DNA of 64,000 nucleotides from Heteronotia binoei (Eukaryota). The number at the start of each line of letters is the position of its first letter. Position 1 is the first letter of the stretch. A model generated the notes under the pieces. The model saw only the letters and a list, made by a program, of their open reading frames with translations. It did not search any database and was not told where the DNA came from. The translations under genes were made by a program, and so were the position numbers. Below, piece after piece: positions 1,366 through 60,900 of the stretch. The stretch covers positions 47,182,001 to 47,246,000 of the forward strand of contig NC_083236.1 in NCBI RefSeq assembly GCF_032191835.1, written 5' to 3'.

Positions 1366-3984
1366 TCAGTGAAAGATGGATCTGAGGACCGCTTGGCCGA
1401 AGGAGGCGTCACGTCTCGCACGAACGTCCAGCGCATAATGGGAGACGAACGTGGAAGGAGAGGACCACGATGCAGCAGCACAGATGTCCTCTAGGGAGAC
1501 GCCGTGCAGGAAAGCCGAAGACGTCGAGACCGCTCTAGTAGAGTGAGCCTTAAGGCCTTCGGGCAGAGGCTGTTTAGCCAGTTCGTAACACAACCTGATG
1601 GCACTAACTACCCATTTAGATAGTCTCTGGGTAGAAATTTTGTGTCCTTTGTGAGGTTTTCCGTAGGCCACAAACAGGTTAGGGTCCTTACGGAAAGGCT
1701 GTGTACGATCAAGGTAGAAAGATAAAGCCCTTCTGACATCCAGAGAATGCAGGGCTCGTTGTCCTTGGTCGGTTGGGTTGGAGAAAAAGGTTGGCAGAGA
1801 AGTTGAAGTCGATAAGTGGAACTGGGAGACGGGTGGATTGAGGTGCAACATGCCCTTGAGAAAAGACTTAGACAAGGCATGAGAGAAAACTGTTTTGCCG
1901 TCTACTGGATTGTGGAACGCAGAGATGGCAGACAGGTGAACTTTTAAGGATGAGTAGCAGAGTCCTGATTTTTGTAGAGAAAGTAAATAATCCAGGATCA
2001 TGCTAAGAGGTACGGACTCTGGATGTAGATGGTTAGCAGTCGCGAATGAACAGAAGCGCTTCCATTTATGTTGGTACGAAAGTCTTGTGGAAGGCTTTCT
2101 TGCGTTGAGAATGATGTGGGCTACCCCTGCGGAGAGGCAGGAGGGTGTATCCTCCAGGCCGTCAAGGCCAGCACCTGAGGGTTGTGATGTAATATTTGGC
2201 CATTGGCCTGGGACAGGAGGTCGCTCACGAGAGGGAGACGACGGTAAGTGCGGTGGGATAGCTGCAGAAGTCTCGTGAACCACGGTTGCCGTGGCCACCA
2301 TGGGGCCACAAGGATGCAGTCCGTGCCGTCTCGTGTGATCTTTATCAGTACCCGAGTCAGTAGAGGGGTTGGTGGAAAGAGATAGTGAAGAGGGCCTGTC
2401 CAGCTGTGTAGGAAGGCGTCGTTTCCCCTCCTGGAATAATAGCGAGGACATTTGGCATTGTCCCTGGAAGCAAAGGCGTCCACCTTGGGTGTTCCGAAAC
2501 ATCTGAAGATGCGTCGAAGGTAGGTCGGATTGATGGACCACTCGTGGTCGTCCAAGCGAAACCTGCTTAGGGAGTCGGCCAGAACATTCTCCACACCTGG
2601 GAGGTGAACGGCAGTCAAGTAAATGTTGTGTTTCAGACACCATTCCCAGAGCAGAATGGCTATACGGCACAGCCGGAGAGACCTGGTTCCTCCCTGCTTG
2701 TTTATGTAATAGACGGCTGCCATGTTGTCCGTTGAAAACTGAACATGCCGTCCGTTGATCAGTGGGAGAAACGATAGGAGGGCCCTGTGCACAGCAATCA
2801 GTTCTAAGCAGTTTATGTGCATGGCCCTCTCGGAGGGTGTCCAAAGGCCCCTGACGGTCTTGTCCTCTAAGTGGGCTCCCCATCCCCACTTTGAGGCGTC
2901 CGTTGTCACAACAGCCACCGGAGGAGTTGGGAGAAACGGCATGCCCGCGAGGAGATTGCTGGGTACAGTCCACCATGTGAGAGAAGAGAGTGCTCTCTGG
3001 GGAACAGTGAGTAAGACGCTCTGCGGTTGCAATTGAAGATGGTAGGCTCGTACAAACCAGAGCTGTAGCTGTCGCATTCGTAGCTTGGCAAAGTAGATGA
3101 CAGAAGTTGTGGCGGCCATGAGGCCCAGCAAGCGTTGGATTGTGAACGCAGACTGGCGAGGCTGTCGTTGAATCGCCCTGGCTAAGGTAATGATGGTTAT
3201 TGCTCGATCCTTGGGGAGGAAAGCACGATGGAGAGAAGTGCGAAGGAGAGCCCCTATAAACTTGATGTCCTGGGTAGGCTCGAGATGGGATTTGGATGTG
3301 TTCACACAAAGACCCAGGGAATTGAGAAGAGAGAGCGCTGTGTTGATATTGCTCTGCAATCGAGTCGGTGCTATGAAAAGCCAGTCGTCGATATATGGGA
3401 AGACTGTGATGTCCCGAATTCTGAGAGCAGCTGCCACCACCGCCATGCACTTGGTGAACACCCTTGGTGCAGTGGAGAGGCCGAACGGCAGGGATACATA
3501 TTGGAAGTGGTCCTGTCCCATGGCGAATCGCAGATACTTCCGATGTTGAGGTCGGATTGTCACATGGAAGTAAGCGTCCTGAAGATCTAGGGAAGCCATC
3601 CAGGAATTCCTGGGAATAAGAGGCAGGATGGCCTGCAGGGAGATCATTCTGAACTTCCTGTATTCGATGTACTTGTTTAGCTTCCGAAGATCTAGGATAG
3701 GGCGCTTTCCTCCATCCCTTTTGGGGACCAGGAAGTATCTTGAGTAGAATCCCGTCCCTCGGTGTTGGGGAGGAACGGGTTCTATGGCATTTTTCTGGAG
3801 CAAGTCCAGAATTTCCTGATGGAGGAGTGCAGATGGAGGGGTAGCTATGAAGTAGTGGTGGCGAGGTGGCAAAACGAACTCTATTGCGTAACCGATACGC
3901 ACGATGGTAAGAACCCAAGAGTCGGTGGTGATGGAATTCCAGCTTGGGTAAAAAGGAAGTAGTCGGGTGTGACTGTTGGGAGAG
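1366..3984 (-). CDS. DIRS copy A ORF3: tyrosine recombinase with long N-terminal frame overlapping RT; internally deleted
   Basis: KAHSTR and SHY motifs are present; the SARR..EL catalytic Arg segment is missing (LNPP joined directly to VSQFHL, about 81 aa shorter than copy D); the frame is open back to the ORF1 stop. Confidence 0.85.
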   Translation of the reverse strand, partial: LSQQSHPTTSFLPKLEFHHHRLLGSYHRAYRLRNRVRFATSPPLLHSYPSICTPPSGNSGLAPEKCHRTRSSPTPRDGILLKILPGPQKGWRKAPYPRSSEAKQVHRIQEVQNDLPAGHPASYSQEFLDGFPRSSGRLLPCDNPTSTSEVSAIRHGTGPLPICIPAVRPLHCTKGVHQVHGGGGSCSQNSGHHSLPIYRRLAFHSTDSIAEQYQHSALSSQFPGSLCEHIQIPSRAYPGHQVYRGSPSHFSPSCFPPQGSSNNHHYLSQGDSTTASPVCVHNPTLAGPHGRHNFCHLLCQATNATATALVCTSLPSSIATAERLTHCSPESTLFSHMVDCTQQSPRGHAVSPNSSGGCCDNGRLKVGMGSPLRGQDRQGPLDTLREGHAHKLLRTDCCAQGPPIVSPTDQRTACSVFNGQHGSRLLHKQAGRNQVSPAVPYSHSALGMVSETQHLLDCRSPPRCGECSGRLPKQVSLGRPRVVHQSDLPSTHLQMFRNTQGGRLCFQGQCQMSSLLFQEGKRRLPTQLDRPSSLSLSTNPSTDSGTDKDHTRRHGLHPCGPMVATATVVHETSAAIPPHLPSSPSRERPPVPGQWPNITSQPSGAGLDGLEDTPSCLSAGVAHIILNARKPSTRLSYQHKWKRFCSFATANHLHPESVPLSMILDYLLSLQKSGLCYSSLKVHLSAISAFHNPVDGKTVFSHALSKSFLKGMLHLNPPVSQFHLSTSTSLPTFFSNPTDQGQRALHSLDVRRALSFYLDRTQPFRKDPNLFVAYGKPHKGHKISTQRLSKWVVSAIRLCYELAKQPLPEGLKAHSTRAVSTSSAFLHGVSLEDICAAASWSSPSTFVSHYALDVRARRDASFGQAVLRSIFH

Positions 3985-4256
3985 TCAAAGAGACTGCTTG
4001 CTTGTCTGGGATTGTTTCTTGGAAGGTTGAGCCCGTGGCCTCTGCTGGAAAGACTGCTTTGGGAGGGGTTTCCTTTTCCAGAAATCCTGAGACTTAGGAG
4101 ACCGTTGACGGCGTTGAAAGGATGGCTTCCATGGTCTTTGCCTATTAGCGGGCAGTGAGGTTGGTTGTGTGACCCCAAGGCGTTTTGCCCTTTTGCGGCC
4201 GTCATCGACCGATGCGAGGACCTCGTCCGTGGACGCATGGAATAGTCCCAGACCAT
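2121..4256 (-). CDS. DIRS copy A ORF2: reverse transcriptase, RNase H and Dam-like methyltransferase domain
   Basis: LDLQDAYFH, LPFGLSTAP, YIDD (RT); TDAS, LELIAV, TDN, ADSLSR (RNase H); VDAFAS...YLFPP...WPRQPW (MT-like); start codon uncertain. Confidence 0.92.
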   Translation of the reverse strand: MVWDYSMRPRTRSSHRSMTAAKGQNALGSHNQPHCPLIGKDHGSHPFNAVNGLLSLRISGKGNPSQSSLSSRGHGLNLPRNNPRQASSLFDSPNSHTRLLPFYPSWNSITTDSWVLTIVRIGYAIEFVLPPRHHYFIATPPSALLHQEILDLLQKNAIEPVPPQHRGTGFYSRYFLVPKRDGGKRPILDLRKLNKYIEYRKFRMISLQAILPLIPRNSWMASLDLQDAYFHVTIRPQHRKYLRFAMGQDHFQYVSLPFGLSTAPRVFTKCMAVVAAALRIRDITVFPYIDDWLFIAPTRLQSNINTALSLLNSLGLCVNTSKSHLEPTQDIKFIGALLRTSLHRAFLPKDRAITIITLARAIQRQPRQSAFTIQRLLGLMAATTSVIYFAKLRMRQLQLWFVRAYHLQLQPQSVLLTVPQRALSSLTWWTVPSNLLAGMPFLPTPPVAVVTTDASKWGWGAHLEDKTVRGLWTPSERAMHINCLELIAVHRALLSFLPLINGRHVQFSTDNMAAVYYINKQGGTRSLRLCRIAILLWEWCLKHNIYLTAVHLPGVENVLADSLSRFRLDDHEWSINPTYLRRIFRCFGTPKVDAFASRDNAKCPRYYSRRGNDAFLHSWTGPLHYLFPPTPLLTRVLIKITRDGTDCILVAPWWPRQPWFTRLLQLSHRTYRRLPLVSDLLSQANGQILHHNPQVLALTAWRIHPPASPQG

Positions 4257-29520: not shown

Positions 29521-29543
29521 GTTGATAAGTCACAAGTAAAAGG

Positions 29544-31528: not shown

Positions 31529-32885
31529 GGCCCCAGTTGGTTGTAGTCACATATTAGGGGGCTGTGGATGTTGATTACTGGCTTTCTTCAGTTGTGGAGG
31601 GACACAGCCTCTGCGTCTGCCATAAGGTGGGTTCTGCATCTGTTAGTGGTATTGGTATTGACGAGGAGGATACTGGTAGGGCTGGTAATATGGCCTTCGT
31701 TGTCGATAAAATGTTGACTGGTAAGGAGGACGTTGAGGTGCACGTTGAGTGTTCTGTGAGGAAGCTTCATATACACTCAAGGAACGGGCCGTTTGTCTGC
31801 TTTTCTTTATATCGGAAAGGGATTCATCTGTGTTCTTGGCAAAAAGAGAATTATTTTCAAAAGGTCAGTCCTCTACCAATGCTCTTGTATCTAATGGAAG
31901 AATGGTGCTTCTCAACCAGGAGTGTTGCCTCAAAAGTATAGAGGATGCCATGCCTCTGGCTCGAACCTCTGCCGAGCGCTTGCCAACACTTATTTGCTGT
32001 TTGGACAGACAGATTGCTTCTGACTGAATTACTTTAGCCAACTCCTTGGTCTCTTCTGGGAGCAGATTGATATACTTTTCCAGGCTTTTCCAGAGAAAGA
32101 GCTGGTAGCCTCCCATAATTATTTCATAGTTAGCAATTTTAAAATTGAGAGCTGAGGAAGAATAAAACTTCCTTCCCAAAATGTCCAGCCTACAACCCTC
32201 ACGATCTATAGGTGCTATGTGTTTCCCAGGATGCCTTTGAGACTGCATTCCTTCAATAACACAGAAGATGCTATGGGGTGAGAGAGCAAATATTCAGCCC
32301 CTTCAGGTTTTACTCTGTATAAATTCTCCCTAGGTGTAGATTGCATGGAAGCTGGTGTTTTCCAAATAGGGATGGTGAGTTCTTCAACTCCTTCTAAAAT
32401 AGGGAAGGCAATTGTAGTTGGAGACTCAGCATGCAGGCGGGCAAGAATTTTGTCCTTTGGCCTAACATCAGAAACAGCAACATCAAGCTCTAAAGCTCTA
32501 GCCATTCTCACCATGTGTTCACTGAATAGTCTATAATCTTCAGTGGATGAAAGATTCCGAGTGTCAGCCAGAGAGTCGTCAGGTGAGGGCGCTGTCCCCC
32601 TTGTTGAACTCTCTTGAGAAGAAGTTGACAATACATCTACATCACTGCCCTGGGGGTGGAAGTGTGGTGCAGATCTGTAAGGATCAACCTCGCGTGGGGC
32701 TGGTCTGTAGTCAAAATATCTCTGTAAGATAGGCATATGCCTGACATCAGAATCATAGGGCTCCTCTGCCCAGTCATCAAACACTGGTTCCATAAGCTCA
32801 AAGTCAATGCCTTGGTAACCCGGAATGGACTGATTTGCTTCATTAGGAAGTTGCAACGGTTCAATCTGCTGTAACCCCACTGGAG

Positions 32886-35800
32886 AATTGTCCATTTGCA
32901 CCTGCACCTTCTTCTTCTGTAACATATCTGAGAAAGTTGTTAAAGCCAACTTAATTGCTCTTAATGCCAATAAATTGATGTGATAGCCAGAATGTGACCG
33001 TGGCCATGTATCCTGCACTTGAATACGTTCACAGTGTGCACCCTAGCCCACCCTTGAGGCATCCGTCATCAACACTACCTCAGGTGACCATGGCCCAAAT
33101 TCAACTCCTTCAAATAAATTTAAGTCTGACGTCCACCATTCTAGGGATGTTAAAGCCCTGATGTGGGGAATGCACCCGTATATCAAACCGTCTTATAAAC
33201 CAGTTTTGTAGCTCCCTCATGTGCAACCTAGCAAAGGGAACCACAGCAGTTGTAGACACCATCAAGCCAAGGGCTTGTTGTATCATTTGAACAGACTGAA
33301 AACGTTTCCGTTGGAAGGACCTTACCATCGTCTTTAGACTCAGAGCTCTATCTCTAGGCAAAAAAGCCCTATTCTTTTGTGAATCTAGATATGCCCCAAT
33401 AAACTGGGCTTGCTGTGATGGAATTAAATGTGATTTCTCATAGTATATTATGAGTCCTAACCTAGTGCAAGTGCTCAACACAAACTGTATTTGTTCTTGC
33501 AACCCTTCCCGTGATTCAGCCACCAACAGCCAGTCATCCAAATACGGAAAAATGGTGCAGCCCTTAGTTATAAAATAAGCCATGACAACAGCTATGCATT
33601 TTGTAAAAACACGTGGAGCTGTTGCCACACCAAAAGGTAGCACAGAGTATTGGAAAACGTTCTGTCCCTTTCTAAACCTAAGAAATTTTCTGTGCTCTGG
33701 GTAAATTCCAGTGTGAAAGTATGCATCCTTAAGATCTAAAACACCAAACCAGATTCCTCTGGAAAGGAGTTCTAAGACTGAAGGCAAAGTGACCATATGG
33801 GATCTTTTAATACATAGATGCTCATTTAATGATCTCAGATCTAAAATAGGTCTGCGACCTCCATCTTTCTTGTCAATAACAAAAAACCTAGAATAAAAAT
33901 CTGTGGCTGAAAGACCCTCCTGCACTGCTCCTTTGGTTATCAACTCATCTAGTTGTACTAGCAACTCTGGGAACTGATTATCAAATGCAGTGTACCCCTG
34001 CGAAAGGGTTGGATGGGAGCAAAACTCTAACCTATAACCTGAACTGATCACAGACAGAACCCAGGAATCAGAACAAATTTCCTCCCAGGACTTAACAAAA
34101 TCAAACAAATGATCCAGAAAACATTGCTCCCTCCCCTCTTGCTCCTGCAGAAGTCAGTCTTGACTGCTGCTGCTCCCTCTGCTGGAAGGGGCCTCTTGAC
34201 CTAGGAGCATTACATTTCCTATAGAAGGGAACAGATTGATTATTAAACTGGCGACCAGGATACTGGAAGGGTTGTGGCCAAAAGGACGAGCAGATCTGTA
34301 AAATGGAGAAGAGAACTGCTGTTGTCTCAGTGTATAGTGATATCCCTGCTGATTTCCACCAGAGTAGACACTTAAAGTTCTCGCTGCTTGCTTGCTTTTC
34401 TTAATCTCTGACAAGAATTCATCATTATTCTGTGCAAAGAGAGATGTACGATGGAACGGTAAATCTTCCACCCATCTTCGAGTTTCCAAAGGGTTGTACG
34501 CAGCCATGAGTGACGTCTCAGAACAATGCCTGAAGCCATTGAACTTGCTGCGATTTCTGCTGAGTGCTTTTCAGCACTAATCTGTTGTTTCGATAGGCGA
34601 ATAGCCTCCGAATGAATTACTCTAGCAAGTGATCTGGCCTCAAGAGGGAGCATCTCAGTGTACTTCTGTATGCCTTCCCACAAAAACAATTGGTAGCCTC
34701 CCATAATTGTTTCATAATTGGCTACTCTAAAGTTTAAAGCAGCTGAGGCATATATCTTCTTTCCTATAAAATCTAAACGTCGACCTTCTCTATCTGACGG
34801 AGAATTATGCTGACCTGGCTTGCAGTGCGTTTTCATGCCCTCAATAATGACAGATGAAGCCACAGGATGCTGCACCAGATACTCTGCATTATCAGGCTTT
34901 ACCCTGTACAAATGCTCTAGTTTCCTTGGCGTTGCTTGCATTGACCCAGGAGTCTTCCATATCTGCAATGCCAACTCATCTAAACCCTCCAATATAGGGA
35001 ATGCTATTGTGGTTGGTGACTCTGCTGACAAGCGTGCCAGGATTTATCTTTAGGCCTTGTATCTGAAGCTGCTACATTAATCTCTAAGGCATGCGCCATG
35101 CGTACCATCTGTTCATTATACAACTTAAAAGTCCTCATTAGTTGGAGAAGAAAATACATCTCCCAGCCTCTCATCAGGTGATGGATTCAAATTAACCTCC
35201 AATCTTGAGACGGAAGACTCAAGATCATAATCTCGGTTCCAGTCCTTGGGTACTGGGTAGTTACCCACTGCTGAGAGACTCTCAGTCTCATCTAATGGCC
35301 AGGGTTCCATGCTGCCCACTGATCCAATGCTATATAAGTCACCCACTTGAGTATTTCCAACACCACGGGGTCAAGATCTCTCCTCCACAGGGGCTGTCCC
35401 TGCAGCAAAGCCAGGATCATGATCCGATAAGGGCCCAGGATCTGAAAAGTGTGGAGATGGGGTTCTTGGAACTGACTCCTCCAAAGCCTTACTGGCCAAA
35501 GAAGCAGACTCAACAGCCTTATGCTTGTGCTTAGTCTTTGACTTCTTTAATTTCTTTAGGGGTGGAGGTTCAGACTCTGCTCTAGCTGTCTCCTCCACCC
35601 GTGGCCGTTCATGCCTGCCCCGATTCCCTGCCAACACAGAAGCTGCGCATTTTGGAGGTCTGAACTGCGTTGAAAATGGGACAAAGGGGACTGATCTCAC
35701 AGAGGCAGAACTTGAGGGCCCCTCTATATCAGCACCTGAAGGCTCTTGCCCCTCCTTATCATGGAGTATAGATGAAAACGCTCTCTCCCACAGGGCTGCT

Positions 35801-36221
35801 TTGAGACGCGCTGCCCTATCAGTCTGTGCCTTCGGTGTAAACGCCTGGCAGACGCTACATTTGGGGACATTATATCCCTCCCCCAAACAGATCCGGCAGA
35901 AATCGTGATCATCCGAAGTGGGCATCTTAACATCACACCTAATGCATTTTTTAAATACTGGTTTAGAAGCCATTTCTGAGGAGAAATCTGGAAGAAATTG
36001 ACAACTGAACTAACTCCAACAGCGGCAAAAAAGGAACTGGGGGAATGTGGGCGGTCCGCCGTTGGGGGGAGTCCATTAAACGGGGGTAGTGCAGACGTAG
36101 TCTATTTAATGGCGGACCGCCAGAGATCTGGAAAAATTCTAGGCTTGTCAATCAACCTCTGCAGCAGGCCTGCCTCGCTGCAGTCCCCAATGTGGGGATG
36201 CACAGCAAAACGGACGATGAA
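32886..36221 (-). mobile_element. Nested DIRS (copy C), 3'-truncated, inserted in ORF1 of copy B
   Basis: Its own 5' terminus (ttcatcgtccgttttgctgtgcatcccc) at 36221; ORF1 from 35973; RT at 33110-34108 (YLDD); RNase H ends at QMDN and is fused to the middle of copy B ORF1. Confidence 0.87.
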
Positions 36222-36897
36222 CCGACTGAGTAGATGGGGATTTAAAATTAGGTTCCCCCAACAGAGCATGAATCTCCTCACCTCTTGCCTTGGAAGTTGT
36301 CAGCTTGCCAGGAAGAGAGGAGGACAACACTCTCTCCCAAACGTGGCTTTAACGTGTGCAGATCTATCTGCCCTGGCTTTCAGGGTGAACTTTTGGCAAA
36401 TCTCACAAGTGCACACATTGTGATTTCCCCCCAAACAAATCAGGCAGTGATTATGTTCATCTTTCTGAGGCATCTTTGACCCACATCGGGTGCACTTTTT
36501 GAAGTCTGGGTGAGATGACATGATGGCAGTAATATCAAGAGCCGTCCAGAAATAAAGCAATGTCAGGGGATTGACAGAAATCACCCTTTCTTTTGAGAAA
36601 CAGTCACCTTTGTTTGTTTGTTTTTAACGTTTGTGAAGTTGACATTTTACCTTAGCGCAAGAACAGCGATAGCTGAACCAATCTCGTAGGCGGCTAAAAA
36701 GGAACTGAGGGAATGAGGGGCGGTACGTGTTTATAAAGGGGAAATTAGGCATGAAAATTCGTGCATGCTCGGTGCTCTTAGTGGACCGCCCCAGTTCTAG
36801 AAAAAAAAATTGAGCTAGAAGAATCAATCTCCGCGGCTGGCCTGCGCTTGCGCAATCCCAACGTGAGGCTGCACAGCAAGACGGACAATGAACATTG

Positions 36898-37845
36898 TTC
36901 ACAACTACACGCTCACAGGGATTTGACAGCAGAGGTGCCAAAGTGAGAGGTGCTCCAATGCTCCCTCTAAGCTGTGGAGTTTTGGAGAAAAAAATGTACT
37001 TGGTGAGCTACTGGCATTAAAGTTGTGAGCTGTGGCATAAATTAGTTTGCTCCAGGGCCATTTTTCCCTGGTTAAGACAAAAATGTGTGAGCTGGAGGCT
37101 AAAAAACTGTGAGCTAGCTCACACTAACTCAACTTAGAAGGAAAACTGGAGCCTGGGGCTCAGGCGATGCAAATTATGTACCCTTGTGGATCTGATGGTT
37201 AGGAAGAGGGTAACGAGAAAGGATCACACAACGTCCTCCTGGATTTGACAGCCAAGGGGTAAAAATGTGAGAGGTGCAGGGGCTCAGATTTTGCAAGTAC
37301 ATGCCCTTCCCGGATTTGACAGGAAGAGGATTAACATGAGAGAGGTGCTGGGTTCAGGTTCACAACTACACTGGTGGATTTGTCAGTCAGGAACAGGGTA
37401 GGAAAGAACAATGTGCTGGGTCTCAGGTTTACAAACACAGATCCAAAGGATGTATTTTACACAGCAAAGGAGTAAAAATGAGAGGAGCAAGGACATACAT
37501 CCTGGATTTGACAGGAAGAGGGTAAAAAGAAAAGGGGTACTGGGGCTGAGGATCACAGCTACAGGACAAAATGGATTTGACAGCAAAGGAGTAAAAATGA
37601 AAGGTGCTGGGGCTCACATTTTTAAAATTGTGCACCCTCCTGGATTTGACAGTTAGAAAGAAGGTAACAAACAAAGAAAGAGGTGCTGGGGCTCCAGTTC
37701 ACAACTGCATGTCCACATGGATTTGACAGCAAAGGAGTCAAAATACAAGGTGCTATGATAGCTCAGATTCTTCCCCCTGTATTTTACAGGAAGGGGTAAA
37801 AATTAGAAAGATACTGGGGCTCTTACACAGCCTCATAGATTTGAA
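36898..37845. repeat. Degenerate ~65-72 bp minisatellite, distal part (contains a MITE at 36957-37148)
   Basis: About ten recurrences of ggatttgacag with ggtgctggggctcag. Confidence 0.7.
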
Positions 37846-48725: not shown

Positions 48726-50238
48726 AGGTCTAAGATTAGTGATGGCTAATAGTTTGATCTAGATATAGGCTTGGAACTGTTGGGGGGGTTTTCTGTGAAC
48801 AGAAGGGGGTGTGAATTTCACCGACCTCCTCCATGGTGCTTCTGGAGAAGGGGGGTCCTCTGTTCCCCAGGAGGGGCATTTCAGGCTACAGTAGAAGCAG
48901 GGAGCTGAAGACATCACGCTCCATAGATGGAAACCCCCTCTGTCTACAAAAATGACTTGGGGAAGCCAAACCAGAATGAACTATAATTGGACCATCCTGG
49001 TCAGCATAATCTACAATGACAGCAGCTCTCAATGGTTTTAAGAGGTGCTGTGTTACCTAAAATCATTTAACTGGAAATGACAAGAATTGAGCTAGAGACA
49101 TCACAAACTGATGGATTGCATTTATCACTGCTAATCCAGGCACACTGTTAAAAAAAAGTAATGCAAGACCTTACATTTAGATCCAGGGGGTTGGATTAGT
49201 GTTTTTGCTTTTATGCATATGAAATTTGCAGGGTGCAATTTTAACCTGTAAAGTGTCTCTTATTTTGTTTAATGATCTCAGTCTTTATTAAGGGCGAATG
49301 TAGAGCTGTGTCTTATGTGCATTATTAGAGCAGAATCCTAAACAGAGTTATGCCCTTCTAATCCTAATGGGCAGAAGAGTTTATGTTTGGGACTGTACTC
49401 TGAACTGCTCACTGTTGCTGCTTAAGAGTTAGGAGGAAATGTTATTGGATAAGTTAGCATTCTGTATCAGAAATGTCTATATGATTTTGAATAAGAGTTG
49501 CTTGATGAATAAACTGTTTTCAACAAGCAACGGTGACAAAAAAAGCAGCTCTTCAGTTTAAAATCTTTGCGGGCATGGTCTTTCCTACACAGGAAAACAG
49601 ACATTTGTGGTGTACTTCATGAATCCACTGTAAATAACAGATTTATATAATCTGTGAAGAAATACACTTTAGATATAATATCTGAATTGGAAGCTGATAA
49701 ATCTCAGCTCATTGTGTGTGTGCTGTGTGTGGTTCAGAAAGGGAAAAAAATTCTCATTAGGTTTACATTCTTATTACATTTAAGACTCTCAAGTATCATG
49801 GGCCTCCTGTCAGCTACAAGTCCAAATGCTGCCATCTAAGGCCTGATCTTCTTCGTGGTCTCTGTGCTTCACACTCATGGGATAGTGCGCCTGCGCCGAT
49901 CCCCGAATCGGTATATGCAAAAGCCCGGGATTTTTTCGCGCCAGGCGCCAGCAGGCATGCGCAAGCGACCCACTGCACATGCCCACCGGCGCCCGCGCGG
50001 CAATCCCGCCAGTTCCTTTCTGACCGCTGCGCTAGAGAGGTTCCCTTTCTGATTCTCCGGTCGGTGAGAGCGATCTTTTTCTCTCTTTCAGCCCGTTTTG
50101 GATTTGTATATAGTTAGTTAGCGTTTTTGCTTTTAGTCCGGCGGATCGCCCTTTGGGGTGGTCCGCTTCCGTTTTTGACCTCCCTTTCTCTCAGACGTTT
50201 CTGAGTAAAAGGAAAAAGCTTTTCCCGCGCGACCGCTT

Positions 50239-52284
50239 ATGGAAAGTCGCTGGGGGTTTTTTAAGCGCTGCCAGGCTTGTGGGAGGAAGATTGCCCCCCC
50301 CGACGGACATTCCTTGTGCCTACTGTGTTTGGGGGAGGCGCACAGAGTCGAGTCGTGCCCGCATTGCCTTCGGTTCTCGAAACAGACCAGGAAGAACCGA
50401 GCGGCTCGGCTATCGGCAGCGCTTACCGAATCGGCGCTTCGACCCCATCGACCGATGGAGGGTTCGGCACCGAAGTCGACCGACAACCCGGCACAGGAGC
50501 TTGCATCGGCCGATGCTGCTCCGATTCTGACCTTGGAATCGCCGGAAGAGCGTGGCTCCACGAAGCGTCCCCACGAGGGTTCGGTGGATACGCCCGCTAA
50601 AAAACGCCGAGAGGACTCGGGGACCCGAGATCCGAAAAAGGCGAAATCGAAGAAGAAGCACAAGCGACCCCGCACTCCTTCTCCGTCGGAGGGCGCATCG
50701 GCATCGGCAAAACCGCCGAAATCGATTCGGGTTTCCCCGCGCAGGAGCCCAGCAGCCCAACAACGCCTGTCGGCGTCGGAGCAGGAACCGGAAATTGACC
50801 TTACCCAACGGTCTTCATCCTCAGGCTCGCGGCGTCGGTCGAGCAGCGGATCGACGTCGGGGGTGGACGCTTCGGCACCGGTCATAGACCCGCCCTTCAA
50901 GCCCCGACCCCGGCGGGACCTAGCCTACACCCCGCAACGCTTCCCGATACCACCATGGGAGCAACGGCGGTGGCAACCTCCCTACTCCCGATACGAATCC
51001 TGTCGGTGGTACCCGGAGGACTACCAAGACTGGGAACAAGCTTCGGTGTTTTCTGCGACGTCGAGGGTCTCGCATCACTCCCGGAAGGCGTCGGCGTCGG
51101 TGTCGGTCCCCCCGGATCGACAGCTAGTCCCGGTCGAAGCTCCCCCGAGACTTTCGTCGGTGCAACTCCAACCGCGAGAGTCGACACCGAGGCTCTCCGA
51201 GCACTCCGCCCAGCGTGACTCCTCGTCATCGGAGTCGGACAGTGAGATCCCTGATCTGGAGCCTTCGCCTGGTTCCAACACGGCGGAGGATCTCCCGATC
51301 TCGCCGTCGGAAGACCTGAAATCCTATGGCGACCTTGTGAGGCGCATCGCTTCCACCCTTAAACTGCCTGTGATCCAACCGGAACCCGTAGTGGACGACA
51401 ACGTGTTCGACATAATGCAGAGGAACACGTCCACTGCGGTGGCCCTTCCGGTCACCAAGGTGATTCTGCAGGCCATCAAAGAATCGTGGAACAAGCCTTC
51501 CTCCACACCTGTCTCCTCTAAACGCCTGGACCACATGTACAGGGTTCAGGAAGCAGGTGCTGAGTTTCTATTCACCCACCCACGTCCGAATTCCGTGGTC
51601 GTCTCCTCCTCCTCGAAGGCAAGGAAGGTGCACTCCTCCCCACCGGACAAGGAGGGCAGGAAGATCGATGGGATGGGCCGCAAGGTCTATTCAGCGGGGG
51701 CACTTGGCATCAAGGTATCCAACTATGCAGCCTGCATGGCCAGGTACCAGTATGCTGTGTGGGAACAGCTTTCCCCCTTCCTCTCTTCACTAAGTGAGGA
51801 CAAGAAGACGGCGGCAATGAAATTACAAAGGGAAGGTCTTGCTGTAGCCAGACAGCAGCTGGCTGCAGCGAAACATATGGTGGAAGCTTCAGCCAAAGCC
51901 ATCACATCGGCAGTTTGCATCAGGCGACACTCCTGGCTCAGGTCAACGGCACTGCACCAAGACACCAAGACCTTTATCGAGGACTTACCCTTCGAGGGTG
52001 AGGGGCTCTTCAGCACTACGACTGACGCGGCGCTGCAAGAGTTTGATAAGAGCGTCAAGACATCCAGGAACTTGGGGGTCCAGCCTTCCTCTAAGTCTCC
52101 GAAGTCGAAACAATGGTCCAAACCCTGGACCAAGAAGCCCTATCAGAAGTTCTCCCCTGAGCAGTGGCGTCCTCGCTCGCAGCAACCTGAACGACCGCCC
52201 TACTCCGGCAACGGTAGAAACCGTTATGGGGGCCAGCCTTCTAATAAATCTAAGGGGGCTCGGCCACAGAAGCAGGGGGTTTGA
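50239..52284 (+). CDS. DIRS copy D ORF1 (gag-like, 681 aa)
   Basis: ATG start; CxxC-x9-H-xx-C-xx-C-x4-H-x4-CxxC motif; C-terminal PDKEGRKID, RRHSWLR, IEDLPFEG as in the other copies. Confidence 0.93.
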   Translation: MESRWGFFKRCQACGRKIAPPDGHSLCLLCLGEAHRVESCPHCLRFSKQTRKNRAARLSAALTESALRPHRPMEGSAPKSTDNPAQELASADAAPILTLESPEERGSTKRPHEGSVDTPAKKRREDSGTRDPKKAKSKKKHKRPRTPSPSEGASASAKPPKSIRVSPRRSPAAQQRLSASEQEPEIDLTQRSSSSGSRRRSSSGSTSGVDASAPVIDPPFKPRPRRDLAYTPQRFPIPPWEQRRWQPPYSRYESCRWYPEDYQDWEQASVFSATSRVSHHSRKASASVSVPPDRQLVPVEAPPRLSSVQLQPRESTPRLSEHSAQRDSSSSESDSEIPDLEPSPGSNTAEDLPISPSEDLKSYGDLVRRIASTLKLPVIQPEPVVDDNVFDIMQRNTSTAVALPVTKVILQAIKESWNKPSSTPVSSKRLDHMYRVQEAGAEFLFTHPRPNSVVVSSSSKARKVHSSPPDKEGRKIDGMGRKVYSAGALGIKVSNYAACMARYQYAVWEQLSPFLSSLSEDKKTAAMKLQREGLAVARQQLAAAKHMVEASAKAITSAVCIRRHSWLRSTALHQDTKTFIEDLPFEGEGLFSTTTDAALQEFDKSVKTSRNLGVQPSSKSPKSKQWSKPWTKKPYQKFSPEQWRPRSQQPERPPYSGNGRNRYGGQPSNKSKGARPQKQGV

Positions 52285-54181
52285 CTTCCCGCAAGCACGC
52301 GTCATCGCCCCCACTGTCGACCATTCCATTCGCCTACGCCCTTTCCTGCCTGCCTGGGAGTTAATCTCCACAGACAGGTGGGCTCTGTCCATTATACGAG
52401 AGGGCTACAAGATAGAGTTTATCCAGACCCCAAACCAGTCCGTGGTAGTTACCACTCCCCCTTCCCCACCTCTGCTGGCGGAGGTGAGCAACCTCCTACA
52501 GAAACAAGCCATAGAAGTTGTTCCACCGGAGGCCAGGTTGGGAGGCTTCTACTCCCGCTACTTTCTGGTCCCCAAGAGGGACGGGGGCCTACGGCCTATC
52601 ATGGACTTGCGGGGTCTGAACAAATTCATTCTATATCAGAAATTCAGAATGGCTACACTGCAAACAATCCTGCCCCTCATCAACCAAGGGGATTGGATGG
52701 CGACCCTGGACCTCAGGGATGCTTACTTTCATGTCAGCATCCATCCTGCGTTCAGGCGTTTCCTGCGGTTTGCAGTGGGTGCTCGTCACTTCCAATTCAG
52801 GGCCCTGCCGTTTGGACTGTCTACTGCTCCTCGGGTGTTCACGAAGCTGATGAGTGTGGTGGCTGCTCACCTTCGTCTTCAGGGAGTCGTTGTTTTTCCG
52901 TACATCGACGACTGGCTTCTCGTGGCAAGGTCGAGGGAGAGTCTAACATCTCATATCGCCATCACTCTGCGCCTTCTCGGCACCCTGGGGTTGCAGGTCA
53001 ACGTGGAGAAGTCTCATCTCACCCCGTCAAAGACAGTTCAATTCATAGGGGCTCTGTTGGACACAGATCAGCACAGAGCTTTTCTTCCCGCTCAGAGAGC
53101 AAAGGACATCATGACCCTAGTACAGCTTCTCCAAAGACGACAGTGGGGCACAGCACAGCAGATCCAGCGGATGCTGGGACTGATGGCTGCGACGACGAGC
53201 GTGCTGCGTTTTGCAAGACTGCACATGAGGGGCTTACAACTATGGTTCTTGCGCCATTTTCGCCCTCTCAGAGACTCACCTCGGAAGAGGTTTACCATCC
53301 CATCCGAGGCTCTTCAATCCCTGCAATGGTGGGGGTCGGAGGGCAACATCTGCCAAGGGGCTCCCTTTCATCTGCCAACCCCTTCCGTGACTATCGCCAC
53401 CGATGCTTCCATGTGGGGGTGGGGAGCTCATCTGGAGAACTTATGTGTGGGGGGCAAGTGGCCACTGGAACTCAACCGGTACCACATAAACTACCTGGAA
53501 CTGCTGGCGGTCCACTTTGCTCTTCGTTCCTTCCGCCCTTTGTTAGCGGGGAAGATAGTGGCATTACTGACGGACAACACCACTGCCATGTGTTATATAA
53601 ACAGGCAGGGAGGGACAGTGTCTCACAGGCTGTGCTCACTGGCATTAGATCTCTGGAGGGAGTGCCTCCAGTGGGGCATTTTTGTGAAGGCTACGCATCT
53701 GCCTGGGGTCCTCAATGTACGGGCAGACTCGCTCAGCAGGGGCGCAGCGTCCCCACACGAATGGGAACTGCAGTGGAAGTTCCTGGAACCGGTGTTCCAA
53801 CTTTGGGGCTACCCGCAGTTAGACGTCTTCGCCACAGCGCGGAACAAGAAGTGCCCATTGTTTTGTGCCAGAGGGGGTGCGGACCCAGCTTCCCTGGGGG
53901 ACGGACTCCTTTTCCGGTGGGAGGGCTGGTTCCTGTACATGTTCCCACCCTTACCCCTGTTGACGAGAGTGGTCCACAAGTTAGTGCAGGAGAGGCCACG
54001 ATGCATTCTGGTGACCCCGTGGTGGCCCCGTCAGAGCTGGTTCCCGATTCTGCTCCAGCAGTCGGAGGGGGTCTTTTACCAGTTTCCGGCGGAACCGGAC
54101 CTGTTGTCGGCCCAGGGCGGACACGTACTCCATCACAACGTGCCACACCTGAAGCTGACAGCGTGGTTCATCGATCACTAG
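51998..54181 (+). CDS. DIRS copy D ORF2: RT, RNase H and Dam-like MT domain
   Basis: LDLRDAYFH, LPFGLSTAP, YIDD; TDAS, LELLAV, TDN, ADSLSR; LDVFAT...YMFPP; the listed start is GTG, so the true start is unknown. Confidence 0.93.
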   Translation: MRGSSALRLTRRCKSLIRASRHPGTWGSSLPLSLRSRNNGPNPGPRSPIRSSPLSSGVLARSNLNDRPTPATVETVMGASLLINLRGLGHRSRGFDFPQARVIAPTVDHSIRLRPFLPAWELISTDRWALSIIREGYKIEFIQTPNQSVVVTTPPSPPLLAEVSNLLQKQAIEVVPPEARLGGFYSRYFLVPKRDGGLRPIMDLRGLNKFILYQKFRMATLQTILPLINQGDWMATLDLRDAYFHVSIHPAFRRFLRFAVGARHFQFRALPFGLSTAPRVFTKLMSVVAAHLRLQGVVVFPYIDDWLLVARSRESLTSHIAITLRLLGTLGLQVNVEKSHLTPSKTVQFIGALLDTDQHRAFLPAQRAKDIMTLVQLLQRRQWGTAQQIQRMLGLMAATTSVLRFARLHMRGLQLWFLRHFRPLRDSPRKRFTIPSEALQSLQWWGSEGNICQGAPFHLPTPSVTIATDASMWGWGAHLENLCVGGKWPLELNRYHINYLELLAVHFALRSFRPLLAGKIVALLTDNTTAMCYINRQGGTVSHRLCSLALDLWRECLQWGIFVKATHLPGVLNVRADSLSRGAASPHEWELQWKFLEPVFQLWGYPQLDVFATARNKKCPLFCARGGADPASLGDGLLFRWEGWFLYMFPPLPLLTRVVHKLVQERPRCILVTPWWPRQSWFPILLQQSEGVFYQFPAEPDLLSAQGGHVLHHNVPHLKLTAWFIDH

Positions 54182-55200
54182 ACTTTTCCACCAGAGTTCA
54201 ACATGTGCTCCAGAGTAGCAGGAAACCTTCCACCCGTGCCTCTTACGAGAGGAAGTGGAAGAAGTTCAGTGACTTCGTGGCTGGCTCTCCTGTGCCAACC
54301 AACTCGGTTGGGCTCCCAAAAATTTTTGAGTTTCTTTTGTCCTTGATCGATGAGGGGTTAGTTTTCTCCTCCGTCAAGGTTTATTTGGCAGCTATTTCTG
54401 CCTTCCATGTCTCGGTTGAGGGTCACTCTGTTTTTGCGCACCCACATTCCAAGAGGTTTTTAAAGGGGCTCTTCCGGCTTCATCCCCCCTCGAGATCCCC
54501 TCCACAGTTGTGGGACCTGACTTTAGTTTTGGACAAGCTAACTCGCCGTCCCTTTGAACCCATGGCTACATGCTCCCTGCAGCTTTTGTCATGGAAGACT
54601 GCGTTTTTAGTGGCCATCACTTCAGCACGCCGTGCGGGGGAGCTCACAGCGATGCGGTGTGACTACCCATACCTTGCCTTTAGGGAGGCCGGAGTTTCTT
54701 TGGCCCCGGACATTACCTTTCTCCCGAAAGTGGTTTCCCAGTTTCACCTTAACTTAGAGGTTTGGTTACCCACGTTTTACCCTAGCCCTTCCTCGGACGA
54801 GGAACGGAGGCTACATGCACTGGACGTTAAGCGTGCCCTCCTGTTTTATTTAAACCGTTCAAGGGGTTTTCGTAAAGATAACCAGCTTTTTGTCTCCTAC
54901 TCTGCCCCTAAGTTAGGGTCCAAGATTTCGTCTCAGAGACTTTCCAAGTGGCTTACTGAGACGATCAAACTTTGTTATCTGTTGGCTAAAAAGCCTTTAC
55001 CTGGACCTGTGCGTGGACACTCCACTAGGGCGATGGCTACGTCGGTGGCATTCCTGAAAGGCGTGTCCCTCTCCGATGTCTGCAAGGCGGCTACCTGGTC
55101 TTCTCCGCATGCCTTCATGAAGCATTACGCGCTGGACGTGCATGCTCAGCAGAGGACTCGGTTGGGAGCTGCGGTGCTACAGGCTGTGTCTTCAGGCTGA
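52285..55200 (+). CDS. DIRS copy D ORF3: tyrosine recombinase with long N-terminal overlap of ORF2
   Basis: SARRAGEL, GHSTR and KHY give the R-H-R-Y tetrad; the frame is open from the ORF1 stop; true start unknown. Confidence 0.92.
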   Translation, partial: LPASTRHRPHCRPFHSPTPFPACLGVNLHRQVGSVHYTRGLQDRVYPDPKPVRGSYHSPFPTSAGGGEQPPTETSHRSCSTGGQVGRLLLPLLSGPQEGRGPTAYHGLAGSEQIHSISEIQNGYTANNPAPHQPRGLDGDPGPQGCLLSCQHPSCVQAFPAVCSGCSSLPIQGPAVWTVYCSSGVHEADECGGCSPSSSGSRCFSVHRRLASRGKVEGESNISYRHHSAPSRHPGVAGQRGEVSSHPVKDSSIHRGSVGHRSAQSFSSRSESKGHHDPSTASPKTTVGHSTADPADAGTDGCDDERAAFCKTAHEGLTTMVLAPFSPSQRLTSEEVYHPIRGSSIPAMVGVGGQHLPRGSLSSANPFRDYRHRCFHVGVGSSSGELMCGGQVATGTQPVPHKLPGTAGGPLCSSFLPPFVSGEDSGITDGQHHCHVLYKQAGRDSVSQAVLTGIRSLEGVPPVGHFCEGYASAWGPQCTGRLAQQGRSVPTRMGTAVEVPGTGVPTLGLPAVRRLRHSAEQEVPIVLCQRGCGPSFPGGRTPFPVGGLVPVHVPTLTPVDESGPQVSAGEATMHSGDPVVAPSELVPDSAPAVGGGLLPVSGGTGPVVGPGRTRTPSQRATPEADSVVHRSLDFSTRVQHVLQSSRKPSTRASYERKWKKFSDFVAGSPVPTNSVGLPKIFEFLLSLIDEGLVFSSVKVYLAAISAFHVSVEGHSVFAHPHSKRFLKGLFRLHPPSRSPPQLWDLTLVLDKLTRRPFEPMATCSLQLLSWKTAFLVAITSARRAGELTAMRCDYPYLAFREAGVSLAPDITFLPKVVSQFHLNLEVWLPTFYPSPSSDEERRLHALDVKRALLFYLNRSRGFRKDNQLFVSYSAPKLGSKISSQRLSKWLTETIKLCYLLAKKPLPGPVRGHSTRAMATSVAFLKGVSLSDVCKAATWSSPHAFMKHYALDVHAQQRTRLGAAVLQAVSSG

Positions 55201-55238
55201 CCGTCTTCCCGCCTCCAGGTATGCTTTGCTTGCTAATC

Positions 55239-55333
55239 TCCCATGAGTGTGAAGCACAGAGACCACGAAGAAGATAGACAGGTTGCTTACCTGTAACTGT
55301 AGATCTTCGAGTGGTCATCTGTGCATTCACACT
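55239..55333. other. ICR of DIRS copy D
   Basis: 55239-55275 is complementary to the 5' terminus and 55276-55333 to the 3' terminus. Confidence 0.93.
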
Positions 55334-58059
55334 ACCCGCCCTCCTTCCCCGCTGCTGACGGTCTCTCTCTCTCCAGAAAGGGGCTTTCAGCGGTCAGGGA
55401 GGAACTGGCGGGATTGCCGCGCGGGCGCCGGTGGGCATGCGCAGTGGGTCGCTTGCGCATGCCTGCTGGCGCCTGGCGCGAAAAAATCCCGGGCTTTTGC
55501 ATATACCGATTCGGGGATCGGCGCAGGCGCACTATCCCATGAGTGTGAATGCACAGATGACCACTCGAAGATCTACAGTTACAGGTAAGCAACCTGTCTT
55601 TATGCATGTGTGTTTTCCCTCACTTTCACTGTGCATGTCTGTCAGATTTTCTTTGTCATTCTGTATTGATTTTCCCTCCTTCCCTCCCTCTCTTCTTGGC
55701 AGCTGTTTCTCTGGGTTTCCTGAGTGCTTTTGTGTCAATTTCTCCCTTGCTTCACTTTCAAGCTGAAGGTAACTCAAAATGGTGCAGATTCCCTTGGATT
55801 CCATCCCCCACCCTTTTTCTGCCTCTTAAAGATCAGGCTCCCACATCAAGGTTGTTCCACCCACTCTGCATCTTCCAACATCCTTCCCCCCTTGTCGGTG
55901 TACAAGTTCCATTTCCCCCTCATTGTTTTAAATTTTTTTTATAAGCAACATGAGTCTAGCAATATGAGACTATCGCTAGTCTGGGACCACTGAATTAAAA
56001 AAAATTAAATGATGGAGGAAAGTTTAAAAATAGCTCCGTGAGGGTTAGTTCCCTGGTGGTATTGATTTGAAAGAAAGATCAGAGGGGAGGCAAACAGCAA
56101 TGTTGCCAGTGCAACAAATAAAAAAAAAAAGATTTCAGTGCTGCATGCAAACAAAATAGAGTGTGGAGGATCCTCAGCACATAATGAAATTGATATAAGA
56201 TGTAAAAGACACTGGGATGGGAAACGGAAAGCTTTGAAAACACATTTCCCTTTAATGCTTTAGTAAACAAGGGTTTTTTTTTGGGGGGGGGGGACCATTT
56301 TGGCAGTTTTCAGAAGCCAAACATTAAAAAGGCGGCTGAGGCACATGGATCTTCTGCAAATTGCCAAACGTAAGAATTGTTTGGGACCGTTCTGTTTGGA
56401 GGACAGAGTGCAGTCTGCACAGAACAGACTCTAAAAAACCCTGCCAAGATCATGACCAGTGTGCAGGATTAAATTAGAGAATCACAAAGAGAAAACCATA
56501 CAAATTTGCAAGGAAGGGCAGGAAACTAGTATTACTGTGCAGCTGTACTAGGACACTGGCAAAATACCCCCTACCCCCATATGGCACATAACTAAAAAAG
56601 CTCTCCAGGGCTTCTGCCTGAGAACTCCTCCCACATACAAATTGGAACACTGTGCAAAGCATGATGGAGTTGCAGCCAATTTTGCCCAGGCACACACACA
56701 TGTTGCCAGTGATCACAGCTTGCATTGCCAGTGTCAGTGGAGTCTACCATGCATTGTGTACACTCAACATGTTCTCCCATATTATGAGATCATGTGACTC
56801 CTTTCCATTTTTCACAGTGGCCAATAACACAGCAGAGAATCTCCTAATCCTAGGTAATGTGGAAAGTGGACTTATTAGCTGCTTGTCAGTTTCAAAGAAC
56901 AAGTCTGGTCAAGTTCAACATTGATTTCCCTCCCTTTACCTGCCTTCCTTTCTGTTCCCATTCATACAATGAACTTGCACTAAAGTGCATGCATGTGCGA
57001 AACCTGAACCAAGGGGATTTAAAGAGAAGGTGTTTGCTGGATGTTACTGCACAGCTGCAATAGGGCAATTGCGTACATTTTAAAAACTTTGGCTGCCACC
57101 CCCACACATCACAAGTGATGTTCCACCCTGACTTAGAGAAGTGTGTTTTAAAAATTGCAGCTGCAGTATAAATACACTGGAGGAAAAAGAATGGTGCGTA
57201 AGGTGGGCACAGAATCTGGAGTCAATATTAAAGGCTTACTGCTCTGAAAATCTGCAGTGCATGCGTAATGGGCCCAAATCACAGTGGCGTACTTGGGTAT
57301 GTCAAGATTATAAGATTGGTTCTAATCTTCTCGAGTCTTGCAAGTACCTATGTAAATCCCATTAAGAGACGCACATGTGCAAACATCTGACTATCAACGT
57401 GAGGCCAAGCATCTACTTGATCTGTAGAAACAAAGGGGCTATTGAACTTTACATGATTTTGAATGGCCTATATACTTCTTACATTTAAAGAAAGCTGTAA
57501 ATTGCTTTTGGGTCACCTTAACGCTTCATTCTTGACACGAGTGGAACTTCTATGCAGCTGTGCTCATAACCCAAGATCACAGTGTGACCCCAATGGTGCT
57601 GTCTGGAAAGTGTTCAAACAGGAGCATGAGAATTTAAGACTTAAATCTTAAGCACTTATTAAGGAGTCCTATTTAACTTGCTTCTGACCAAACATGATTA
57701 GCATCTTCCTTACTGATTCACCAGTCTCACTGTTGCATTGCAGTGTACCATGAAGTTATACAGCACAATCCTATGTTTGTTCATTAGGAAATACACCCCA
57801 ATGAGGAATTCTCCAGGGTTATTATGCAGAAGACTTTAAACTTAAATGGTACCATTGAAGCAAATTAGAAATATACATAGTTGGAAAACCTTACTCAATA
57901 GTGTGGCACACTTTCTGGTAAGGATGATCAGGAGGAGTATAGCACCGATGGCCTTTAAACCAATGGGAGTGGGGAAAAAACCTGGACCTGTGCACCCCCA
58001 ACCCCCCCCCCCCATGGGATAATGTGTTTTAACAATAAGCCAGGGGCTCCGCCCAAGGA

Positions 58060-59169: not shown

Positions 59170-59880
59170 TTAGGAGAGTTTGACCACACACACTGCCAGG
59201 ACGATGGCAACCAGGAGGACGGCGGTGAAAATGACGACGGCGAGCACTTTGCGAGCGTTGCAAAAGGACTTGCTCTCCACTTCGATCATGCCGATGGAGG
59301 AGGCGGCCACGCTGATGGCGGAGTTGAGCTCGGCCCCGGGGTCCTGCTTGGCCTCCACCGTCCACTGCGGGACGTTGACTTTCATCTCCATCTCGTACAT
59401 CATCTCGCCAACCTGGTTGATCTCGTTCTCTAGGTCCTTCAGATCCACCACGTCGATGTTGTGGTCGGCCTCGTACTTCATGTTCTGGACGCTCATGGCC
59501 CGGGCCGCCACGCCGGAGGTGCCGCCGCTCATGCCCGTCTGCATGAGGTGCTTCTTGGGTACATTGAGGGGGAACTCCTGGCCCAGCTCCAGGGCCCGCT
59601 TCATGTCGGTCTCCAGGATCTCCATGCAGGAGGTGAAGAGGACCCATAGCCGCTCGAACTCCGCCCGGTCCTCCTTGCTGATGGTCTTGTCCCTCAAGAC
59701 CGCCGTCAGCTTGTTGCGGTTGGCCACCGCCAGCTCCTGGGCTTTCTGCCGGGTCTTCTTCAGCTCCTCGCGCAAGTTCTGCGAGTCCGAGGTGCCCCCG
59801 ACGGTCAGCACCAGCTGCCGGTAGCAGGCGGTCACCCGGTTGAGCGCGTCCAGCAGCGCTTTGCATTCCTCCTTCACCAT
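59170..59880 (-). CDS. RGS9BP: Regulator of G-protein signalling 9 binding protein (R9AP), single exon, 236 aa
   Basis: [40 protein letters not shown]..., EFERLWV, C-terminal transmembrane helix; synteny with NUDT19 and TDRD12. Confidence 0.96.
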
Positions 59881-59899
59881 GGCGCAGGCTGGCGAGGGC

Positions 59900-60900
59900 A
59901 GCCGGGCCGGCGGACAAGGTGCTGGCGAGCGACTGCGCGCCTCCTCCTCCTCCTCTCTCCCTTCGCCTCCCGCAAGTCAGCCCGAATTACTCGACAGCCG
60001 CAGCTCCCGGACCCCGCCAGCAACGCATGGCCGGAGCCCCGCGCTGCTCACCAAGCCGTCGAGTCTGCAAGAAGCCCAGGCGTTTGGAGACGATCTCGGG
60101 GCTCGCGGAACAGCAGCGCCCAGCGCCGACGGCTCTCCAACATCTCTCTCTCCCGCGCAGAGCAAAGGCGCAGGGAAGCCCACTTCGGACAGCGAGTTCC
60201 CCGCCCGGCTGTCTCCTTAAGCGCGCGGCCCCCGGCAGCGCTCTCCAGAAGGCAGCGGCGGTGTTAAATAGCGCCCAGCTGGCAACCTCTGGCGCAATCA
60301 CATGGAGCGCGCCGGGAAATCGCCCCGCACGCCGGCTCCCCCTCTCCGCCGCTGCCCGCGCTTCTGGTTCGGCCAGCGGCCCCGCCTTCCCCCCAACTCC
60401 GCCCTCTCCGGCTGCTGATTGAGCGGACGTGGCCTGAGCGGCTGCGGGAAAATCCGGCGCATTGGTTCGGCGCCGGGCAGAACCCGCCTCGGCCGCTCGG
60501 CTAGGAAGAGGTAGGGCTTGGTTGGCGAGGGAGAGCGCCGCCGCTGTGGCTGAAAGGGGGCGAGCGGGAGGGGGAAAGCGAAGGGGACCCCACCGCTCAG
60601 CAGAAGCGAAACCATGCCCCCCTCCTCGTGAGTACGTAAGGGGCCTGCCTGCGCCATTCAGTCCAGGCTGGGGAAAGGACTGCGCCCTCGGGAGGGTGTG
60701 CCTCGGTCGCCCAGGCCTTTCCAGAGGTGTTTGGCCACTCTGGCGGAAAAAGGGGGAGGGGGAGGGTTAGCAGAGGTAGGAGACGAAGGAAACTTTGGCC
60801 CCTTTGGTGGGTGACTTTAAGAGACTTGCGACTCGCCTCCTTAAACACGCATTTCTCCCCCTGCCCCCCTCTCCCGTCTTTCTGTAAAGTATTAAGGGGC
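59900..60900. promoter_or_regulatory. CpG island, bidirectional promoter of RGS9BP and a probable divergent gene (ANKRD27 by synteny only)
   Basis: Very GC/CpG-rich; attgg (CCAAT reverse) near 60462; plus-strand donor-like gtgagt and gtaagg near 60628-60640; no ANKRD27 coding exon found in the window. Confidence 0.55.

Follow-up and report, generated by a model that had tools for sequence, protein, structure and literature searches.

Here, we describe an intact DIRS1-like retrotransposon (copy B) in a 64,000-nucleotide window of the Heteronotia binoei genome (assembly GCF_032191835.1, contig NC_083236.1, positions 47,182,001 to 47,246,000 of the forward strand), in which a single stop codon at the end of Gag stands at the head of two open frames: the frame of Gag itself (zero frame), which continues under the reverse transcriptase (RT) and into the tyrosine recombinase (YR), and the +1 frame, in which RT begins. 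This layout is a real, conserved feature of a known class of elements. Our best reading, predicted from the sequence and held with a probability of roughly 0.55, is that the recombinase is made by readthrough of this stop as a Gag-linker-YR fusion.

In the proposed model, the Gag stop of long-overlap DIRS elements would act as a weak terminator, with recoding on a single full-length mRNA. The majority of ribosomes would terminate and release Gag (76 kDa), whereas a minority would read through in frame, traverse about 630 stop-free codons and reach the recombinase, yielding a fusion of 1653 amino acids (about 179 kDa). In tetrapod-type elements, such as copy B and a second copy in the window (copy A), other ribosomes would probably slip +1 at NUU-UGA-C to produce a Gag-Pol protein of 1313 amino acids (about 148 kDa), and in a short-overlap family (family C) readthrough of TGA-CT would yield Gag-Pol instead. 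The junction narrows the translation of RT and recombinase across a 1.9-kb overlap to a few bases, with three predicted products of distinct size, and, if both recoding events do take place at one stop, it would be a natural, productive use of termination, readthrough and +1 shifting at one codon.

One stop codon before two open frames

Copy B spans about 49845-55599 on the plus strand; its inverted terminal repeats and internal complementary region are both present (Table 1). Its first open reading frame (ORF1) is of the Gag/LAP2alpha type (Pfam LAP2alpha, E=7e-6, above the cut-off), LAP2alpha being a known domain of DIRS ORF1 (PMC4495291), and the RT and RNase H regions match RVT_1 and RT_RNaseH above their cut-offs. 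The methyltransferase region after RNase H has no Pfam Dam match in B and was assigned by alignment to copy A, whose own Dam match is weak and below the cut-off; the match is clear in one other element (L015). The YR reading frame overlaps pol, as judged from the frames, the catalytic motifs and the Cre/Tre match, and the conserved start of RT lies 16 codons past the Gag stop. A Cys/His cluster at the Gag N-terminus (50266-50367, plus strand), covered by no Pfam family, is kept in copies A, B and C and in several other loci, and is likely to bind zinc.

The initial annotation, made from the letters of the window, had proposed that Gag and recombinase share one frame interrupted once, and this is what we find: from the Gag ATG at 50239 to 55200 there is one frame of 1654 codons, with a single internal TGA (52282-52284, within GGG GTT TGA CTT CCC). 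The 31 open codons that link this TGA to the GTG at 52378 are by themselves uninformative (P(no stop)=0.37); the first in-frame ATG follows only at 53242, 288 codons past the GTG. The stop-free stretch that precedes any ATG amounts to 319 codons in B and 336 in A. The further claim that the frame overlapping RT is kept open is borne out by stop counts, with 0 stops where one would expect 17.4 in B and 20.7 in A, and with none of 5000 synonymous shuffles stop-free in either copy, while the third frame carries its expected load (28 against 28.8 in B, 29 against 24.9 in A).

The same arrangement recurs elsewhere. Contigs of GTDB were scanned with an RT alignment built from long-overlap clades, so that the sample is biased towards them, and this gave 21 loci, of which L001-L015 are DIRS elements and 14 carry the junction; L014 has none and was excluded. 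L016-L021 were set aside as non-DIRS, because they have no YR match and the two of them examined by Pfam carry integrase or protease domains, and a first genome scan with the RT of copy B alone had given 27 pattern matches, none confirmed. In 12 of the 14 junctions, one stop closes a long ORF1 of 374-881 codons, the zero frame is open directly behind it and RT is in +1; of these, ten run unbroken to YR, L006 ends with its contig and L012 has a later frameshift. The remaining two are cut upstream (L003) or carry an indel in Gag (L007), and none contradicts the layout. ORF1 matches the Gag of copy B only in L001 and L005; elsewhere Gag is assigned by position and motif. A tree, from a quick search only, with three rows skipped and the root on a long branch, served solely to group near relatives. 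The GTDB contigs in question are metagenome-assembled genomes (MAGs) labelled as bacteria, yet carry whole eukaryotic DIRS elements (L001-L015) or retroelements of the long terminal repeat type (L016-L021); we infer that L001-L015 are host DNA caught in the MAGs, that is, contamination of the genome set. The element family spans fish-like to reptile genomes.

Across all 16 long-overlap elements with a junction, the zero frame is stop-free under RT (12-21 stops expected in each; 0 of 500 shuffles). Openness sets in right at the Gag stop: up to the first Trp codon, 7.9 zero-frame stops would be expected in 12 lineages and none occurs (P=2e-4); third-frame stops over this stretch number 9 in the 16 elements. 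Its amino acids, on the other hand, are not constrained: of 7 pairs of related elements, 6 show the overlap diverging at four-fold sites like the non-overlapped YR domain, the exception being L003-L004, where overlap divergence is lower (0.42 against 0.58). Together with the lack of any Pfam family, this rules out a functional protein in the overlap. Judged by its sequence, the zero frame is selected for openness, for passage only, with the encoded amino acids mattering little; since stops are depleted but amino acids are unconstrained, ribosomes would have to cross this frame while its content is unimportant.

A conserved AUG start for either protein can be discarded, as AUG positions are not conserved. 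The first AUG of the zero frame lies at codon 12 to 465 or is absent in the 14 loci, and among 61 protein matches in the YR frame, many of them 600-990 amino acids long, the first Met is scattered from about codon 20 to 390. For RT, 7 of the 14 loci have no upstream AUG in the +1 frame, their first AUG lying 46-140 codons in and beyond the first conserved block; copy B has an RT-frame AUG 19 codons upstream of the stop, which is not conserved.

Stop context and entry into the reverse transcriptase frame

The initial annotation had pointed to UGA followed by C, and to CUA in particular, as the readthrough signal. Neither generalizes: the stops of the 14 loci comprise 7 TGA, 6 TAG and 1 TAA, with TGA-C in only 4, and B reads UGA-CUU and A UGA-CUC, UGA-CUA being found only in a decayed copy of family C (C2). 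Copy B thus has the weaker UGA-C context and not the type II motif (UGA-CUA/UGA-CGG). What stands of the proposed Gag-linker-YR readthrough is the conserved layout, the stop depletion and a bias in what follows the stop. Counting one row per lineage, with four near-duplicates dropped (n=14), C follows the stop in 9 lineages (background 0.29, p=0.007) and CT in 7 (background 0.06, p=7e-6), while CTN, CGG, GGR or CAR follows in 11 of 14, compared with 6 of 27 terminal RT/YR stops. According to PMC3159437, viruses use UGA-CUA/CGG (CUA and CGG being the type II triplets), UAG-CAR-YYA and, in Tombusviridae, UAG-GGR as readthrough contexts; G-type contexts occur among the DIRS junctions as UAG-GGA/GGG and UGA-GGG.

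A number of observations weigh against readthrough into the recombinase. The identity of the stop varies and includes TAA, a strong stop; our context classes were picked after inspection of the data, and by our reading strictly published triplets occur in only 5 of 14 lineages, A and B not among them. Some U-ending P-site codons (AUU, GCU) reduced readthrough in a reporter (PMC9841425), and a yeast reporter of the Candida element Tca2, arranged gag-UGA-pol, gave no junction-driven readthrough (PMC2194720). No consistent 3' stimulator was found by folding (z=-0.7 in B, -1.0 in A), pseudoknots and long-range stems lying outside its reach, and an Rfam search gave no match. The adjacency of Gag and YR in one frame is also what one would get from RT having to lie +1 relative to Gag, and products and rates, like any packaging role, are predictions throughout. 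Family C cuts both ways: it shares the leaky-type stop, which we count in favour of recoding, but the target differs, which makes it a counter-example. In its two copies, C1 and C2, which are 55% identical in RT, TGA-CT is in frame with RT and not with YR, although the Gag tail of C1 requires compensating indels for this reading and that of C2 requires none. The YR frame is closed across the RT domain in both (27 stops against 23.6 expected in one, 25 against 23.4 in the other) and in C2 opens only from RNase H onward (1 stop against 12 expected), so family C must get to YR by a route other than the Gag stop.

A conserved 3' hairpin was considered and rejected: the lowest mean z was -2.4, at +40 to +110 nt, but its spacing was variable and controls were often equal. 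The strongest folding at +40 to +110 nt past the Gag stop, which is far for a classic stimulator, is seen in the four elements with G after the stop (L002, L005, L008 and L009; z -4.8 to -7.2).

How RT is reached was left unaddressed by the initial annotation. RT begins at the Gag stop in the +1 frame, and tetrapod-type junctions read NTT-TGA, the NUU-UGA shifty-stop signature. We collected 157 Gag matches (12 from one search and the best 150 of 2595 from another, five shared), 138 of which contain the core anchor. Among non-seed Gag proteins that end 60-100 residues past the anchor, 35 of 53 end in L, V, F or I (background 7%); in a wider window of 30-130 residues the figure is 39 of 69, compared with 11 of 61 in a control ending elsewhere. 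From the best 120 of 1280 RT matches, 19 have the tetrapod-type block, and once three that are too short and three gene-model joins are removed, 10 of the remaining 13 RT-frame extensions carry F-D or F-E 11-34 residues upstream, against 2 occurrences in 928 background residues. CUU-UGA-C is the +1 site of bacterial RF2 (PMC5009743; tabulated in PMC3500957), and the CUU UGA C of copy A equals this listed site, whereas the GUU of copy B is not in that table (PMC3500957). At the OAZ1 (antizyme) stop, UGA-C increases both +1 shifting and readthrough, and the P-site codon determines the frame (PMC9841425).

For tetrapod-type elements we propose that RT is entered by slipping +1 at the Gag stop, a reading to which we give a little less than even odds. 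Only in these elements is the P-site codon both conserved and capable of re-pairing at +1, with the needed ORF in that frame; NTT precedes the stop in 0 of 14 non-tetrapod loci, so the slip is not general. Also on the negative side, one turtle RT reads F-E-G, which implies a purine after TGA, the hydrophobic end of Gag could be a protein signal instead of a slip site, and the Gag search profile itself contained this end. That the +1 frame is also open ahead of the stop says nothing on how RT is entered (3.0 stops expected in total, 0 present), and Ty1, Ty3 and -1 slippery motifs in the Gag tails were dismissed as not common to the elements. Five of 16 elements have an in-frame TTT-CG, similar to the +1 site of influenza PA-X, 32-40 codons ahead of the Gag stop (approximately at L001:2562, L002:2827, L006:1366, L009:1473 and L012:1488), which might serve RT entry in elements lacking NTT-TGA.

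That readthrough and the +1 slip both occur, with one stop as a three-way switch (terminate, slip +1, read through), is a more doubtful proposal. It would include the 630-codon frame as a mere conveyor or tether, and a lineage-dependent rewiring of the leak target (towards YR in elements with the long overlap, towards Pol in family C), each of which is just as tentative.

Alternative routes to the two proteins

Splicing is a serious rival, though an unlikely one, with several points in its favour. Here, the A of TGA would be a branch point and the pyrimidine run a tract, and nearby AGs would join a 5' donor to YR or RT, removing the Gag stop. TGAC followed by pyrimidines does fit a branch point, 7 of 8 TGA-C junctions matching the yUnAy consensus, which tells against readthrough; a CAG follows 24-25 nt on, after 77-86% pyrimidines, in L007, L012 and L013, strong donors lie 13-199 nt past the Gag ATG in L008, L010 and L004, and gene models connect Gag to YR or RT through predicted introns. 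The full pattern is however present in only 3 of 18 junctions (background 96 of 1537), the 7 TAG/TAA junctions do not fit, and the first AG beyond 15 nt is GAG at +76 in B and AAG at +42 in A, with varying phases. There is no common donor, with none scoring at least 8/9 in A or L002, whose 5' ends are present, and the gene-model junctions are mutually inconsistent. The zero frame is, moreover, open even ahead of the first usable AG (0 stops against 3.9 expected, P=0.017). That gene predictors give inconsistent introns in DIRS elements is an observation we ascribe to the recoding-type junction.

Termination followed by AUG-independent reinitiation, or initiation at NUG codons, has a slimmer chance; RT and YR (about 103 kDa) would then be unfused to Gag. 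Such a route accounts for the free choice of stop codon and for both frames opening at the stop, and has a precedent in LINE-1 ORF2 (PMC11485995). NUG codons are available in A and B, but are no evidence because each RT Trp codon forces one in the zero frame (CTG 52354 and GTG 52378 in B). It does not predict weak-terminator contexts, NTT before TGA or a zero frame free of stops up to the first Trp codon.

An internal promoter near the Gag end, producing a subgenomic RNA for RT and YR, is improbable. A minor junction promoter is reported for Tca2 (PMC2194720), and family C needs a route to YR that bypasses the Gag stop; against this, neither frame has a usable conserved AUG, and Dictyostelium DIRS-1 is described as having a single 4.5-kb mRNA that carries three ORFs (PMC3950715; the authors of that study expressed each ORF by itself). 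Finally, that the open frame is an untranslated by-product of RT codon use or of chance, as its unconstrained amino acids might suggest, has next to no probability, being refuted by the lack of any stop in 16 elements, each expected to have 12-21, and by family C, which has the same RT and a full stop load there.

Other features of the window and known systems

Table 1. Features of copy B and junctions of the other DIRS copies in the window
Feature	Position	Strand	Remarks
Left inverted terminal repeat, copy B	49845..50029	+	98% complementary to 55388-55549; self-BLAST
ORF1 (DIRS Gag, 681 amino acids)	50239..52284	+	N-terminal Cys/His motif, LAP2alpha domain, basic tail, KQGV end; homologs and Pfam
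Putative recoding junction GTT TGA CTT	52279..52287	+	predicted YR via zero frame, RT via +1 frame (TTT GAC)
RT-RNase H-methyltransferase frame, +1 to Gag	52283..54181	+	open from 51848; AUGs at 52226, 52601
Zero-frame linker under RT (about 635 codons)	52285..54189	+	Gly/Ser/Pro-rich, without stops; no Pfam family
Tyrosine recombinase domain	54190..55200	+	R, HxxR and Y motifs; profile A5, like Cre/Tre recombinases, E=1e-12
Internal complementary region, copy B	55238..55333	+	left part by reading letters; right part 100% complementary to 55542-55599
Right inverted terminal repeat plus extension	55388..55599	+	complementarity, self-BLAST
Copy A junction CTT TGA CTC	3979..3990	-	same frame logic as B; element about 856-6900
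Decayed copy C1 junction, TGA CTT	34151..34159	-	in frame with RT
Decayed copy C2 junction, TGA CTA	31544..31552	-	shares its frame with Gag and with RT; YR frame not open before RNase H

Copy A had been described as showing the same pattern, which is correct for its junction, where TCT CTT TGA CTC (3987-3985, minus strand) is followed by 872 open codons, but not for the element as a whole: its Gag is frameshifted near 4630 and its YR domain lacks about 80 codons, so it does not form one single-stop frame. C1 and C2 form a rearranged, decayed pair of the short-overlap clade at 28100-37050, in which the YR part has been inverted and lies at about 28555-29411 (plus strand). The right ends of B (55579-55587, plus strand), A (874-882, minus strand) and C (28215-28223, minus strand; C by repeat reading) each bear a nearly perfect splice-donor (U1-type) sequence, and strong donors occur 8-120 nt past the YR stop in A, L005, L007, L009, L010 and L013; such sequences might indicate an intron at the 3' end or a signal for U1 binding. 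Two host genes lie in the window, each in a GC-rich island: a NUDIX exon (26640-27851, minus strand), which we take to be NUDT19-like, and a single-exon ORF with a weak syntaxin-like match (59170-59976, minus strand), presumably RGS9BP-like.

With regard to earlier work, the parts available of PMC9210276, PMC7192593, PMC6681497, PMC3266345, PMC4495291, PMC3950715, PMC3783388 and PMC3537659 contain no statement on readthrough or frameshifting in DIRS, Cappello 1985 and the Goodwin/Poulter papers lying outside this coverage, and full-text literature searches, whose coverage likewise omitted key DIRS papers, found no test of the mechanism at a DIRS junction. Whether the shared-frame layout is new is uncertain, as older DIRS papers may remark on it.

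The elements described here resemble published long-overlap DIRS1-like elements in their inverted terminal repeats, internal complementary region, Gag, RT/RNase H/methyltransferase, YR and long Pol/YR overlap, with the catalytic YR part in the non-overlapping 3' end (PMC3266345, PMC9210276). Such a long overlap is found in only half of 28 annotated elements (PMC3266345), and the descriptions, in the parts available, give the overlap but no translation route for RT or YR. With Gag-Pol readthrough, as in gammaretroviruses (UAG-G and a pseudoknot) and in type II and III plant and animal viruses, DIRS elements share a single in-frame stop after Gag and, among their junctions, the post-stop triplets CUA, CGG and GGR. 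They differ in that the predicted product is a Gag-linker-recombinase that passes RT in another frame, that no conserved 3' structure was found and that A and B carry CUC and CUU. The shifty-stop +1 systems, bacterial RF2 (CUU-UGA-C) and antizyme (UCC-UGA), are similar in having UGA-C and a needed protein directly in +1, and a P-site NUU, with copy A matching RF2 exactly and B differing by its GUU, whereas for the DIRS junctions no Shine-Dalgarno or pseudoknot stimulator emerged and the zero frame is also open and coding. Candida Tca2 and LINE-1 ORF2 offer the further parallel of a retroelement ORF after a stop that is bypassed by an unclear route; in these there is one downstream frame, in DIRS there are two.

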